Assembly (NCBI RefSeq): GCF_964030745.1
Contig: NZ_OZ034918.1
Coordinates: 360,001 to 392,000 of the forward strand
Reading direction: 5' to 3'
DNA: 32,000 nucleotides
Source of the DNA: Candidatus Saccharimonadota bacterium
GTDB taxonomy: Bacteria > Bacteroidota > Bacteroidia > Cytophagales > Amoebophilaceae
In this document: positions 24,697-27,882 of the stretch, piece by piece
Layout: the number at the start of each line of letters is the position of its first letter
Position numbering within the stretch: position 1 is the stretch's first letter
Translations under genes and position numbers: made by a program
The notes under the pieces: model-generated
What the model was told of the DNA's origin: nothing
Database searches by the model: none
Seen by the model: only the letters and a program-made list of their open reading frames with translations

Positions 24697-24817
24697 TGTT
24701 GACGCCATTGGTTGAAGGCTTACGATGAAAGAACTCTATTGCATTTTTAAATTATAATTCATATTATCCAATATGGAACTTGAAGTCAAGTATAATGCCT
24801 TGCATAGGATAAGAATT

Positions 24818-25945
24818 ATGGGTAAAGTGTTTTTATGCCATTTGCTTATGTTGGTTGGATGTAGTCATCTGGTGCAGAGTAATATAGGGTCTCGTAATAG
24901 CCCAGCAGTAGCCACTGGTTCTAATCTTTTAGGTCTTTCTACTGATTTTACTGATGTTTCTTGTTCGCTCAATGCGCTTAATAGCCCTTATTCTGTACCT
25001 AGTTTAGGCATGCATTCCACTGATACTCCTGAGCAACTTGTTCGTACTGCTCAGGATGCAGCTGGTAAGGCTATGCGTAATATGTACAGCCTTGTTAAAA
25101 CCCTTGATGATATGGTTCATCTTAATGTCAATAGTTTAGTTGCTGCTAGTAATATTTATCATCATGTTGCTTTGCGTATGGCTGGTCGCGCTGCTAATTA
25201 TGTTGATACTGCTCGCAATGCTACTGCTCAGCTTGCTTCTCGCCATGGCACTAGTTCCAGTGTTCGTATTCATGCTGCAAAGGCTATCCTTGCGGCTCGT
25301 ATTACTGTTGTGACTGCTTGCCTTATCATTGCTTTTGCTATTGAGCGTCGTGCGCTATTGTATGCTACGCGTAATGCGGATCGTTTTAATCGTAATGCTG
25401 TTGATATAACTGCTGACCCCACTTATTTATCCGATGGTAGGGCTGAGCATGTGCTTGCCGATGCTCGTGCTGATGCTGCTGCTGCTAAAGCTGCTGCTGA
25501 AGATGCGACTAAGGTTGCTGAGGCTACTCGTACCGCTTCTGACCTTGCTATTCAGGCTGGTGCTACGCTTACCCCTGCCATTGCTCATGCTGCTAAGGCT
25601 GCTGCTGACCGCGCTAAGGCTGCTGCTGCTAAGGCTAACTATATTGCTTATGTTATTGCTTTACATCATGGTTCTCAAGCTGATTATAATATTAAAATTG
25701 CCTGTGCTGACTATGCTGCTATTGCTATTGCTTATGCTAACACTACTTCCAACAATACCAATGCGACTGCTACTAATGCGCTTGCGTATACTAAGATTCG
25801 CGCTGATCACCATAAGGATATAGCTGATTATCAGCTTTTTGAAACTGTTCGCACTGCTCATCTTGCTAGGAGTATCTATTCACCACTATCGTTAAAATTT
25901 ACTTCTCCGAAGTATCCATTCACCACCATGGCTACGTTTTTATGA
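24818..25945 (+). CDS. Ala-rich predicted lipoprotein, paralog 1
   Basis: MGKVFLCHLLMLVGCSHLVQSN is a signal plus lipobox. The mature part is about one-quarter Ala with helical low-complexity tracts (ADARADAAAAKAAAEDATKVAEATR...). GCT and T-ending codons dominate. It is a paralog of 26752-27882. The track ORF begins at 24773, but ATG 24818 gives the signal peptide. Confidence 0.7.
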   Translation: MGKVFLCHLLMLVGCSHLVQSNIGSRNSPAVATGSNLLGLSTDFTDVSCSLNALNSPYSVPSLGMHSTDTPEQLVRTAQDAAGKAMRNMYSLVKTLDDMVHLNVNSLVAASNIYHHVALRMAGRAANYVDTARNATAQLASRHGTSSSVRIHAAKAILAARITVVTACLIIAFAIERRALLYATRNADRFNRNAVDITADPTYLSDGRAEHVLADARADAAAAKAAAEDATKVAEATRTASDLAIQAGATLTPAIAHAAKAAADRAKAAAAKANYIAYVIALHHGSQADYNIKIACADYAAIAIAYANTTSNNTNATATNALAYTKIRADHHKDIADYQLFETVRTAHLARSIYSPLSLKFTSPKYPFTTMATFL

Positions 25946-25950
25946 AAAAG

Positions 25951-26030
25951 CAGCTGAATCGATATGTTCGCCTTTTACTAGAGCGTTATTTTTTAGCAAA
26001 GGAGATAAGGGGGGGCAGCTAGAACAGTGA
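25951..26030. mobile_element. Collapsed or deleted copy of the GCCCGC-core MITE
   Basis: CAGCTGAATCGATAT...TTTTACTAGAGCG..ATTTTTTAGCAAAGGAGATAAGG corresponds to the reverse complement of the left arm, fused to an inner segment. Confidence 0.5.
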
Positions 26031-26045
26031 ATAGATACAAACATG

Positions 26046-26136
26046 CTGTTGCATTGTTAAATCATAATTCATATTATTCAATGTGGCACTTAAAGCCAAG
26101 TAAAATGCCTTGCATAGGATAGGAATTATGGGTTAA
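26046..26136 (+). pseudogene. Orphan copy of the Ala-rich lipoprotein leader cassette (upstream region + ATG GGT TAA)
   Basis: About 85-90% identical by eye to 24736-24826, the upstream region and start of paralog 1. The ATG at 26128 is followed by GGT TAA where paralog 1 has GGT AAA. Homology is then lost. Confidence 0.65.
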
Positions 26137-26259
26137 GCGCTACCTAAAAAGATTGCTAATCTAGTGCTGCTAATAATGTATCTATTCACGTCACTGGTTA
26201 ATAATGAATTGTATTCCACTTTTTTCTTGATAAAAAAGTGGACAAAAAATCAAGCCCTC

Positions 26260-26385
26260 GGTAAAAAGTTGGGGACCTCATCCCTTACAGATGGAAAAAC
26301 AGAAGTCGCCCGCTGCGCGGGCTTCAAAGGAATCTGTTTTTCCTAATCATCTGCAAGGGATGAGGCCTATTTCCCCACTTTTTAC
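26260..26385. mobile_element. 126-bp hairpin MITE, second subfamily with the same GCCCGC central stem-loop
   Basis: Nested inverted repeats: GTAAAAAGTTGGGG / CCCCACTTTTTAC, CCTCATCCCTTACAGATG / CATCTGCAAGGGATGAGG, and AAAAACAGA / TCTGTTTTT. The centre is GCCCGCTGCGCGGGC at 26308-26322. Confidence 0.65.
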
Positions 26386-26465
26386 AGGGGCATTTTTCTA
26401 CTATGGACATAGCGTTAAACGCATACGCTACGTTTGGCTGAAAAAGCAAGTGGCTAGTCCATTAC

Positions 26466-26678
26466 CAGCCCCCGCGTCTCCTTCGATAAAAAAATGGCGC
26501 TCTAGTAAAACACTAACACCTGAGCGATATCTTTTTCAGCGGATTAGAAAATCGTCTGTTTGAAGCCCGCTTGCGGGCTGAGTTCACGATTTTCCCGCTG
26601 AAAAATGTATCGATTCAGCTATTTACTATCGGGCCAGACTTTTTATCGAAGGAGATAAGGCGGCCAGCAAGAGGCGTG
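26466..26678. mobile_element. Hairpin MITE (GCCCGC-core family), full copy of about 213 bp
   Basis: Near-identical to 7775-7985 across the whole length, including the central AGCCCGCTTGCGGGCT. Confidence 0.75.
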
Positions 26679-26751
26679 AATGGATACCTAATAATTAGTT
26701 CCTAATGAATGCTTATGTGCATGCTAATAATATTATTAAACAGATACAGTT

Positions 26752-27882
26752 ATGCGAAGTCAGCAATTCCTTTTATGCCATTTGCTCATGTTGGCTGGAT
26801 GTAGCCATCTAGCGCAAAATAACATGTTTTCACGACCTAATAGCCCAGCAGTGGCTGATAATCAAGATCATGATCTTGATGCTTTGATTTCGCTTGTTGA
26901 GGATCTTGCTAATGCACTTCCTACGTCTTATAAGCCTCTTTCTGACTTTGATTTTACTAGTAGTAGCCATCATTCTAGCACAAATAAGGTTACACATATA
27001 GTTGAGGATCTGGATGGTACAGCTATTTTAAGTAATGAACTGCTCAGGGCTATGCTTCCTTGTGTTGCTGGTTTGGATACTAACAGTAATAGTCATTTAA
27101 GTGATGGTGATGGTATACTTAAGCGGATTGGTGTTACGCTGACTCCTGAGTTTCGTGCTTCCTATTCCAGCATTTTTGCTAGATCTGATCGCCCTTATAC
27201 ACCTGAGGCACTTCTTGAGTGTGTTACTACCTATTCCAATTATGCGGTTCATATCGCTTACCTTGTTGCTAGTTCAGCTTGCAACTCTGCTAAGACTTTT
27301 AACAATGCTACTATACCACGTGTGCATAATGCTGCTGCCAAGGCTACTCGTTCTGTTGCGATGCTTGCTTTTACTGCTCATCTTACTCATGCTTTAGCTG
27401 CTGAACACTGTGCTATGCTACATGCTACGCTTGCTACTACTAATCCTACTAACGCTGCTGATGAGACTTCTAAGGCAGAATTAGAAGCTGATAAGGCTAC
27501 TCGTGCTGCTCAGAGAGCGGTTAAAGCTGCTCAGTTTGCTACTGACTATAATATTGCGATTGGTGGTACTTCTGCTGTTGGTTTTACTGATGCTATTATT
27601 TTGGCTATTGACGCTGCTGCTGCACGTGCTAGGGCTTCTGCCACTCATGCCCATGCTGCTCAACGCACTGCCATTCATGCCGATGCTAATCAACTCGCTG
27701 CCACTGCTCAACTTGCTGCCGTTAATGCTAACACTGCTGCTACTAATGCACTTCGTAATGCTATTGCGCGCGCTTACACTAATCGTGATACGGCTACACT
27801 TGATTTTGAGCTTGCTAAAACTACCCTTGATGTTCATCTTTCTAGGATCGCCTCCTTCAACTCTTCCACCTCATCTGCATAA
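26752..27882 (+). CDS. Ala-rich predicted lipoprotein, paralog 2
   Basis: MRSQQFLLCHLLMLAGCSHLAQNN...NSPAVA shares its signal and lipobox with paralog 1, also at the nucleotide level. The Ala-rich C-terminal half (AAAKATRSVAMLAFTAHLTHALAAEH..., NTAATNALRNAIARAYTNRD) is comparable to TNATATNALAYTKIRADHHKD in paralog 1. Confidence 0.7.
   Translation: MRSQQFLLCHLLMLAGCSHLAQNNMFSRPNSPAVADNQDHDLDALISLVEDLANALPTSYKPLSDFDFTSSSHHSSTNKVTHIVEDLDGTAILSNELLRAMLPCVAGLDTNSNSHLSDGDGILKRIGVTLTPEFRASYSSIFARSDRPYTPEALLECVTTYSNYAVHIAYLVASSACNSAKTFNNATIPRVHNAAAKATRSVAMLAFTAHLTHALAAEHCAMLHATLATTNPTNAADETSKAELEADKATRAAQRAVKAAQFATDYNIAIGGTSAVGFTDAIILAIDAAAARARASATHAHAAQRTAIHADANQLAATAQLAAVNANTAATNALRNAIARAYTNRDTATLDFELAKTTLDVHLSRIASFNSSTSSA

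Follow-up and report, generated by a model that had tools for sequence, protein, structure and literature searches.

A large proportion of arthropod species carry Cardinium, which manipulates the reproduction of its hosts. Few of the proteins through which it interacts with them have been identified, and the present candidates are small, fast-evolving orphan lipoproteins. In cEper1, CAHE_0757 is the second most transcribed gene and evolves rapidly (PMC5698495, PMC12560110). CAHE_0406, a proposed cytoplasmic-incompatibility factor with toxicity in yeast, lies adjacent to CAHE_0405 and has with it the common leader MNKYKIKSI.FSAL..MAILNSGAASCSK (bioRxiv 10.64898/2026.06.05.730497). Here we describe two neighboring genes, g1 and g2, found in a 32-kb stretch of DNA (the window, i.e., the whole stretch that was analyzed), which encode predicted Ala-rich lipoproteins and would add to these candidates an undescribed family annotated as "hypothetical protein". 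The most probable reading of the sequences is that g1 and g2 encode old paralogous lipoproteins of the envelope, specific to this lineage and subject to relaxed or diversifying selection, and that the genes, situated in a mobile-element-rich region, were converted at their 5' ends and remodeled by miniature inverted-repeat transposable elements (MITEs).

The window is assigned by protein similarity to a Cardinium-lineage insect endosymbiont, because its uvrC product was 82 to 86% identical to those of all Cardinium species representatives and at most 54% identical to those of the next relatives (Cyclobacterium and others). The gldM and gldN genes next to the pair, with a gldK-like gene and gldL close by, are in line with this assignment. 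The Cardinium loci used for comparison were fetched through uvrC. A sister-strain contig (L001), about 99% identical to the window, came from Sequence Read Archive run SRR15069915, a psyllid metagenome that is also the source of the Ca. Liberibacter capsica assembly (PMC9430466).

The g1 and g2 genes and their family

The predicted type 1 lipoprotein gene g1 (24818 to 25945, forward strand) encodes 375 amino acids with 21% Ala and a third-position T fraction (T3) of 0.66, and the predicted type 2 gene g2 (26752 to 27882, forward strand) encodes 376 amino acids with 20% Ala and a T3 of 0.63. A second in-frame ATG is available to g1 at 24773, and the final 26 nt of g2 overlap the convergent gene of a family 2 glycosyltransferase (GT2). 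Thus, the two Ala-rich open reading frames (ORFs) of about 375 amino acids described in a sequence-only reading of this DNA are both present. The same reading had predicted a lipobox in each protein, and this accords with our inspection, in which the signal peptides were read off the sequence and the rule was applied by hand. In g1, the predicted signal peptide (24818 to 24862, forward strand) is MGKVFLCHLLMLVG, followed by Cys15 in the lipobox LVG-C; in g2 (26752 to 26802, forward strand), it is MRSQQFLLCHLLMLAG, followed by Cys17 in the lipobox LAG-C. Both leaders have a positive charge among their first residues (the basic residue is K3 in g1 and R2 in g2) and then an uncharged h-region with a lipobox of the form [LVI][ASTVI][GAS]C, whose Cys is expected at about residue 15 to 35 (FLCHLLM-LVG-C15 in g1 and FLLCHLLM-LAG-C17 in g2). 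Besides, both agree with the classic lipoprotein rule, {DERK}(6)-[LIVMFWSTAG](2)-[LIVMFYSTAGCQ]-[AGS]-C, and LAGC was also found in three further family members described below (P0002, P0004, and L007b).

The near-identity of the two leaders, which the sequence-only reading had noticed at both the protein and the DNA levels, was borne out by BLASTP (71% identity over 31 amino acids; E value, 6e-11) and by the nucleotide alignment of 24831 to 24885 with 26771 to 26825 (85% over 55 nt). A 29-nt leader pattern occurred exactly twice in the window and not once in 100 shuffles, and composition-corrected BLASTP detected the leader only between g1 and g2. The middles of the proteins have diverged, as had been stated, yet the mature parts are still homologous: their Smith-Waterman score was 183 against 67 ± 10 for global shuffles (z = 11.6), and they were collinear over about 240 amino acids with a z of 8 to 9 against block shuffles that keep the local composition. 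Hence, g1 and g2 are paralogous along the whole proteins and not in the leader alone.

To delimit the family, we queried a word index of 5.8 billion proteins with g1, g2, and a five-member profile and ran HMMER against every protein in a set of 1.84 billion representatives. Together, these searches yielded only four members: P0001, the g1 ortholog in L001 (98% identical); P0002, a 231-amino-acid protein in two Logan runs (L002 and L003); P0003, which is g2 itself; and P0004, annotated as "hypothetical protein" in the Cardinium endosymbiont of Nabis limbatus. A further candidate, P0005 (E value, 4.5e-4), is a repeat protein whose match looks spurious and was set aside. No additional paralog was found at an E value of ≤0.001 in the HMMER scan, from which very divergent members can escape. 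In the Nabis symbiont (L007), six-frame inspection revealed two members flanking uvrC-GT2, namely P0004 (12493 to 13359) and L007b (8809 to 9795), the latter a type 2 relative detected by tblastn (E value, 3e-5). The five members fall into type 1 (g1, P0002, and P0004; common motif AGATLTPAI..KAAADRA) and type 2 (g2 and L007b; common motif RIG(V/F)TLTPEF). Because both types occur in the Cardinium endosymbiont of N. limbatus, the g1/g2 duplication is judged from these motifs to be older than the split of the window and Nabis lineages. No family member adjoined GT2 in cBtQ1, cEhis1, or cBcalN2. When GTDB genomes were scanned with peptide patterns of the family, nothing was returned, but these patterns were too narrow to match even the members in the Nabis symbiont, and the result is not evidence of absence. 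Taken at face value, the family is small, confined among the searched data to three Cardinium lineages, and apparently previously undescribed.

No recognizable homology had been claimed for the two proteins, and all searches agreed. The five family members had no Pfam match even at an E value of ≤10 (noise only), NCBIfam gave no match, and neither did a PDB sequence-profile search. AlphaFold models of g1 and g2 consist wholly of helices of 30 to 50 residues, with low confidence (pLDDT, 49 and 54; pTM, 0.51 and 0.58), and a Foldseek search of the PDB with both models retrieved nothing but spectrin and designed helical bundles of a generic kind (TM score, ≤0.29). We also compared the family with the described Cardinium lipoproteins. 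According to the sequence in the supplement of bioRxiv 10.64898/2026.06.05.730497, CAHE_0757 is an unrelated 681-amino-acid lipoprotein located between alaS and uvrA, not beside uvrC/GT2, and g1 and g2 therefore do not represent it. Homology to CAHE_0405/0406 or CAHE_p0043 was likewise rejected, since hhalign gave a probability of at most about 1%; for the family alignment A3, the values were 0.1% against CAHE_0757, 0.07% against CAHE_0405/0406, and 1.1% against CAHE_p0043.

We aligned the DNA that precedes each of the five family genes, which come from three Cardinium lineages, and found a common order of elements: a first box consisting of TTG(C/T)AT, an AT-rich spacer of 17 nt, and TA..AT; a second box, TATGGGTTAAGCGCTACCTA; 60 to 100 variable nucleotides; and then the ATG and leader. 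The promoter-like first box of g1 (TTGCAT, 17 nt, TATTAT) lies at 24739 to 24767 on the forward strand. That of g2 lies at 26049 to 26077 (TTGCAT at 26049 to 26054 and TATTAT at 26072 to 26077) within a region (26046 to 26137, forward strand) that includes the TATGGGTTAAGCGCTACCTA box of the 5' untranslated region (5'UTR), is 88% identical to 24736 to 24827, and has homologous boxes upstream of the L002, L007a, and L007b genes. The sequence-only reading had taken this region for an orphan leader, an interpretation that we abandon: it reads ATG GGT TAA and encodes no leader, and in L001 it lies about 170 nt before the ATG of g2. Because every family gene carries the box, 26046 to 26137 is the ancestral upstream region of g2 itself, i.e., its putative promoter and 5'UTR. 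In g1, the stretch from the second box to the leader has lost about 125 nt, and the ATG at 24818 would therefore have been recruited from a TATGGGT motif. In a sigma-70 consensus scan, promoter-like sites were no commoner in this region than expected by chance, and the conserved box failed the -35 criterion of the scanner. A structured RNA in the long 5'UTR was also considered and dismissed, as Rfam gave no match at an E value of ≤1.

Evolutionary rates and codon usage

Over 3.4 kb, the window and L001 differed by 10 substitutions. These comprised two nonsynonymous changes and one third-position change in g1, three changes in g2, all nonsynonymous, and four changes in about 1.15 kb of flanking DNA. 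The six substitutions in the 2.26 kb of g1 plus g2 (about 99.7% identity) correspond to the same density as in the flanks. Each gene also showed one in-frame indel: 15 nt (25475 to 25489) in a GCT-rich trinucleotide run of g1, which TRF located at 25456 to 25499 (forward strand), and 12 nt in the (GATGGT)2 repeat of g2 (27103 to 27114, forward strand), which has four units in the sister strain (DGDG versus DGDGDGDG). A 30-nt tandem repeat in g2 (27638 to 27705, forward strand; 2.3 copies, 81% identity) was also detected by TRF. Thus, g1 and g2 are not hypervariable between close strains, and their changes are mostly amino acid altering or of the slippage type.

Over greater evolutionary distances, the proteins change at close to the neutral rate, unlike the products of neighboring genes. 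Using the Nei-Gojobori method on best local alignments, we obtained ratios of nonsynonymous to synonymous divergence (dN/dS) of 0.7 to 1.5 for family pairs, with a dS of 0.39 to 0.55 in four of five pairs and 1.06 for g2-L007b. For the same lineage pair, uvrC gave a dN/dS of 0.10 (dS, 0.81) and GT2 a dN/dS of 0.17 (dS, 0.95). In the family, third codon positions were conserved to the same degree as first and second positions, which is the reverse of the housekeeping pattern. The 5' ends of g1 and g2 behave differently from the rest: both leaders contain CHLL and NSPAVA, whereas the orthologs have CALV, YALP, or CILF. Because these ends are closer to each other than to their orthologs, the first approximately 105 nt of g1 and g2 were presumably homogenized within this genome by gene conversion. 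In addition, a T tract near the beginning of the sequence that codes for the signal peptide varied in length, from T4 in g2 and T5 in g1 to T7 in L002/L003 and T9, in frame, in L007a of the Nabis symbiont. In L002/L003 (positions 313 to 350), the upstream ATG and the lipobox are in different frames because of T7, and T8 would restore the signal peptide MLMKKFFLCALVMLAGC. The T7 sequence was identical in two independent sequencing runs and belongs to the single-copy ortholog of a more distant relative; it may represent a phase-off state or a pseudogene.

The family is also distinguished by its codon usage. Third positions were 58 to 66% T and 7 to 12% A in every family member, the biased segments being 24923 to 25871 and 26857 to 27856 in the window, 8809 to 9795 and 12493 to 13359 in L007, and 348 to 1043 in L002. 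In 14 other window genes that served as controls, the corresponding values were 27 to 39% T and 24 to 38% A; rplB, rplC, and rplD of the same genome had 33 to 38% T, and rpsL, rpsG, fusA, and rpsJ of cBtQ1 had 31 to 37% T. Every codon box in the family moves toward T or away from A, as is seen from the usage, in the family and in the other window genes, respectively, of GCT (0.77 and 0.38), ACT (0.69 and 0.22), GTT (0.79 and 0.30), CTT (0.58 and 0.14), GGT (0.83 and 0.34), AAG (0.73 and 0.27), and GAG (0.65 and 0.26). The bias covers the whole mature region, including the part that is not Ala rich, and fades in the signal peptide and in the MITE-derived tail of g1. It appears to be actively maintained, because it has persisted over lineages that are about 50% diverged at neutral sites and because dS is lowered in four of five pairs.

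Several origins of this bias were considered and rejected. It is not the high-expression signature of the organism, since T3 was only 0.31 to 0.38 in the window genes rplB, rplC, and rplD and in the four cBtQ1 genes. A relic of recent (GCT)n expansion is unlikely, as the bias is equal in codons one and two steps from GCT and extends to the N-terminal part that is not Ala rich; the persistence across about 50% neutral divergence and a family dS below that of the neighbors also speak against it. Nor does it fit that some particular short motif (for instance, an endoribonuclease site) is avoided, because no trinucleotide is absent, the most depleted one being AAA (0.15×). As a separate matter, an antisense or +1-frame gene was rejected as the real product: the shadow ORFs, Leu rich (+1) or Ser rich (antisense), are by-products of the NNT codons, are fragmented, and reach at most 136 amino acids.

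Mobile elements and neighboring genes

The sequence-only reading placed the genes amid MITEs, which we confirmed, although the MITE families are generic, i.e., genome-wide and common to Cardinium, with no special relation to g1 and g2. The largest copy, recognized from repeat matches, its fold, and its absence from L001, is a composite element of 510 nt in the 5'UTR of g2 (26178 to 26687; like the other intergenic copies, without strand assignment). Its terminal inverted repeats of 15 nt, GTATCTATTCACGTC and GTATCCATTCACGCC, match at 13 of 15 positions, and its 8-bp target duplication, CTAATAAT, lies at 26170 to 26177 and 26688 to 26695. Two nested palindromes (26245 to 26397 and 26470 to 26682) lie inside it, and the folding energy of its DNA was -128 kcal/mol (z = -14). 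Its right part is 94% identical to 7778 to 7990, and its left part is copied in four other Cardinium genomes. The element thus combines terminal inverted repeats, a target duplication, multiple copies (in the window and in L004 to L007), and presence/absence polymorphism. Specific to the window strain, it splits g2 from its promoter-like region. A partial copy of the palindromic MITE, its right arm, lies upstream of g1 (24631 to 24697; 88 to 91% identical to 26613 to 26678 and 7920 to 7986), and a fragment matching 26469 to 26518, 26640 to 26687, and 7785 to 7825 lies between g1 and the upstream box of g2 (25965 to 26038). MITE sequence also enters the coding region. The 3' tail of g1 (25872 to 25945, forward strand; repeat family D9), where the T3 bias falls, comprises the final 24 codons and the stop codon and is built from the MITE terminal repeat GTATCYATTCACCAC in two copies, matching the MITE end at 26178 and 6161 to 6196. 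Therefore, the original C terminus of g1 was replaced by MITE sequence.

The only transposase near the genes belongs to an IS5-family insertion sequence (IS) at 22876 to 24180 (forward strand; Pfam DDE_Tnp_1 and DUF772; junctions read directly), 640 nt upstream of g1. It has a transposase ORF at 23002 to 24036, terminal inverted repeats starting with GAGGCCGTTG, and a 5-bp duplication, AGTGT; absent from L001 and hence strain specific, it is part of the context rather than of the family. This IS interrupts the gene of a rhomboid-like membrane protein (22505 to 22891 plus 24196 to 24585) that is intact in L001 (7 to 534; 175 amino acids). In cOegibbosus (L006), the Cardinium of Oedothorax gibbosus, IS copies take the place that the lipoprotein genes have in the window and the Nabis symbiont: three near-identical ORFs of 248 amino acids (4678 to 5424, 9152 to 9898, and 13162 to 13908) flank uvrC-GT2 and are apparently IS transposase copies. 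A palindromic element (ATAGACCTCTTTCGACACCAAAATTGCCATTAG...AGAGGTCTAT), about 57 nt long, is inserted in frame at 28036 to 28093 within GT2 (27857 to 28624), occupying codons 178 to 197 and adding about 20 residues. These residues are missing from the orthologs in L005, L007, L008, and L010, and L004 and L006 have extra residues at that site. Other copies of the element were found within the rhomboid-like ORF (22709 to 22766) and within rbfA (30676 to 30721).

Other window genes include rplB, rplC, rplD, exbB, exbD, rnpA, tpiA, rbfA, and the uvrC and GT2 genes mentioned above, together with a tmRNA gene and a gld cluster. The latter (18315 to 22542) comprises an ORF with only a Pfam FGE-sulfatase-type domain, which we read as gldK-like, followed by gldL, gldM, and gldN. 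These are core genes of type IX secretion or gliding and are kept in this endosymbiont genome of about 1.1 Mb, about 2.3 kb upstream of g1 and g2. The tmRNA gene (8122 to 8581, reverse strand) is about 460 nt, long for an Rfam model of 374 positions, and its tag peptide was predicted by ARAGORN as ENEDEEGEEGAMLLAA; directly beside it, at 7778 to 7990, is the 94% copy of the right part of the 510-nt MITE. An ORF of 1,127 amino acids (9612 to 12995, forward strand) carries, as its only recognizable domain, a C-terminal HD domain at residues about 959 to 1103, and its first approximately 950 residues have no Pfam match.

Interpretation and comparison with known systems

If g1 and g2 are, as we favor, old paralogous lipoproteins of the envelope, they would be exported, lipidated at Cys15 or Cys17, and held in the symbiont cell envelope as long helical bundles. 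A role at the envelope or the host interface seems most likely, given the very rapid evolution of the proteins and the absence of relatives outside Cardinium; it might be structural or shaped by host-driven diversifying or relaxed selection, and a housekeeping enzymatic role is unlikely. Differences between close strains come from replication slippage in the GCT and GATGGT repeats, from point changes that are mostly nonsynonymous, and from IS and MITE insertions around or into the genes. We infer that this variation is ordinary evolutionary divergence and not programmed switching. Several observations weigh against this interpretation. It leaves the extreme T3/A3 bias without an explanation, and the bias could point to very high expression, mRNA-level selection, or a foreign origin. 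The T7 frameshift in L002/L003 and the repeat indels could mean that contingency-type switching is underestimated. Besides, L007b scored only 17 bits against a profile of g1, g2, and P0002, so that very divergent members could be missed; the source genome is covered for 32 kb, and the structural models of both proteins are of low confidence.

The sequence-only reading had proposed a variable surface-protein locus. Its elements, namely paralogous Ala-rich predicted lipoproteins, shared 5' ends, and MITEs, are indeed there, but they lend little support to a system of the Borrelia or Mycoplasma type, as the genes are two old subtypes and the sister strain is nearly identical. The T7 tract of the relative, the repeat indels, and the homogenized leaders are weak hints of contingency. 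A programmed locus, in which poly-T slippage, repeat-number change, and recombination via the common 5' cassette or flanking MITEs would alter the symbiont surface, is accordingly improbable in our view. It would account for the varying T tract at one signal-peptide position (T4, T5, T9, and T7), including the out-of-frame T7 that T8 would repair, for the in-frame repeat indels between near-identical strains, for the homogenized 5' leaders, and for a dN/dS of about 1. On the other hand, there are only two copies and no silent cassettes in the window, with no further paralog among the 1.84 billion representatives, and no recombinase or invertible element is nearby, the lone transposase being that of the strain-specific IS5. 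The T4 and T5 tracts of the window are too short for efficient slippage, and g1 and g2 have separate counterparts in another Cardinium species rather than being recently shuffled variants. The generic nature of the MITEs counts in the same direction, as does the biology of the host, since arthropods lack antibody-based immunity and the symbiont is intracellular. In surface lipoproteins of Bacteroidota such as Capnocytophaga and Bacteroides, moreover, an acidic export signal follows directly after the lipidated Cys. The residues after Cys are SHLVQSN in g1 and SHLAQNN in g2, with no Asp or Glu at +2 to +7, which argues against surface display insofar as this signal, known from Capnocytophaga and Bacteroides, holds for Cardinium. 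Another form of switching, i.e., a contingency system in which poly-T slippage turns expression on and off and GCT slippage varies the protein, with effects on host compatibility or reproductive manipulation, strikes us as very improbable. Within it, NNT usage would be selected for proneness to slippage, for a stop-free +1 frame, or for tuning the translation of an abundant envelope protein.

By analogy with CAHE_0405/CAHE_0406, g1 and g2 might instead be secreted effectors, whose leaders would serve export and whose helical parts would act on host targets. This reading is unlikely but retains some plausibility: both pairs are tandem genes whose lipoprotein leaders are almost identical and whose mature parts differ, protein evolution is rapid, and the distribution is patchy, with none of the genes beside GT2 in cBtQ1, cEhis1, or cBcalN2. 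It is, however, weakened by the lack of any relation to CAHE_0405, CAHE_p0043, or CAHE_0757 (hhalign probability, ≤1%) and of any eukaryote-like domain in the Pfam and NCBIfam searches. That the ORFs are by-products of GCT-rich low-complexity DNA, or are undergoing pseudogenization in a mobile-element hotspot, is quite improbable, even though a dN/dS of about 1 and the mostly nonsynonymous strain changes would suit decay, as would the MITE that replaced the C terminus of g1, the other that parts g2 from its promoter, and the in-frame start lost in the L002/L003 ortholog. NNT codons, too, automatically hold other frames open and create long shadow ORFs, but these frames, at ≤136 amino acids, are much shorter than g1 and g2. 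The frames of about 1.1 kb are intact in two strains with all indels in multiples of three, and full-length members with intact lipoboxes occur in three lineages that have diverged at about 50% of their synonymous sites. The upstream box, too, has been conserved, and the synonymous constraint (dS of 0.39 to 0.55 in four of five pairs against 0.81 to 0.95 in the neighbors) is not expected of dead DNA.

The family combines three unusual traits, i.e., near-neutral protein evolution, a conserved and putatively regulatory box, and a constrained family-wide codon bias (about 65% T and 10% A at third positions) that the ribosomal genes of the same genome lack. Should this bias reflect very high expression or mRNA-level selection, g1 and g2 would rank among the major components of the envelope. 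The locus also offers a clean natural case of gene remodeling by MITEs, with a new C terminus, a split 5'UTR, and an in-frame insertion in a glycosyltransferase.

Compared with Borrelia, the pair resembles VlsE and Vlp/Vsp, which are lipoproteins of about 35 to 40 kDa, rich in Ala, predicted to be all helical, and encoded by paralogs with a conserved N-terminal leader. The g1/g2 family differs in having no Pfam match even at an E value of ≤10 and no PDB profile match. With respect to a helical bundle of the VlsE/OspC type, the g1 and g2 models are all helical but of low confidence (pLDDT, 49 to 54), Foldseek matched them to generic designed bundles with TM scores of ≤0.29, and no VlsE- or Vlp-type structure was among the top 50 Foldseek PDB matches of either of these low-confidence models. 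There is also no silent-cassette array, as the window holds two leaders and two gene bodies, and no telomeric or plasmid expression site; instead, there are two copies only, each with its own promoter-like box.

The Vlp, Vsp, and Vsa systems of Mycoplasma likewise have a 5' leader conserved across paralogs, a homopolymer tract near the 5' end that varies among homologs, and in-frame tandem repeats with strain-variable copy number, the last being modest here (15 nt and 12 nt, one event per gene). Unlike the multigene clusters of Mycoplasma, only two genes carry the leader here, and neither a site-specific recombinase nor an invertible promoter was found at g1 and g2. The homopolymer of g1 and g2 is coding and short (T4 and T5; in relatives, T7 out of frame and T9 in frame), their repeats are few and imperfect, and the Pfam scan gave no sequence similarity.

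With regard to the mobile elements, the Rickettsia palindromic elements and other bacterial MITEs are short, palindromic, and nonautonomous, have terminal inverted repeats and target duplications, and are scattered between genes and sometimes within genes in frame. The C-terminal 24 amino acids of g1 and the element inside GT2 are the Cardinium counterparts of such in-frame insertions. This likeness is descriptive; the Cardinium repeat families differ in sequence and are Cardinium specific, with copies in L004 to L007.

The cEper1 lipoproteins differ from g1 and g2 in length (149, 60, 681, and 312 amino acids) and in their leaders, are not Ala rich, and have no detectable homology to them. In other respects, they are similar: like g1 and g2, they are Cardinium specific, fast evolving, and predicted to be lipoproteins without known domains. 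CAHE_0757 is strongly divergent between strains (28 to 42% identity), and CAHE_0405 and CAHE_0406, as in the pair described here, lie adjacent to each other with a leader in common and mature parts that differ.

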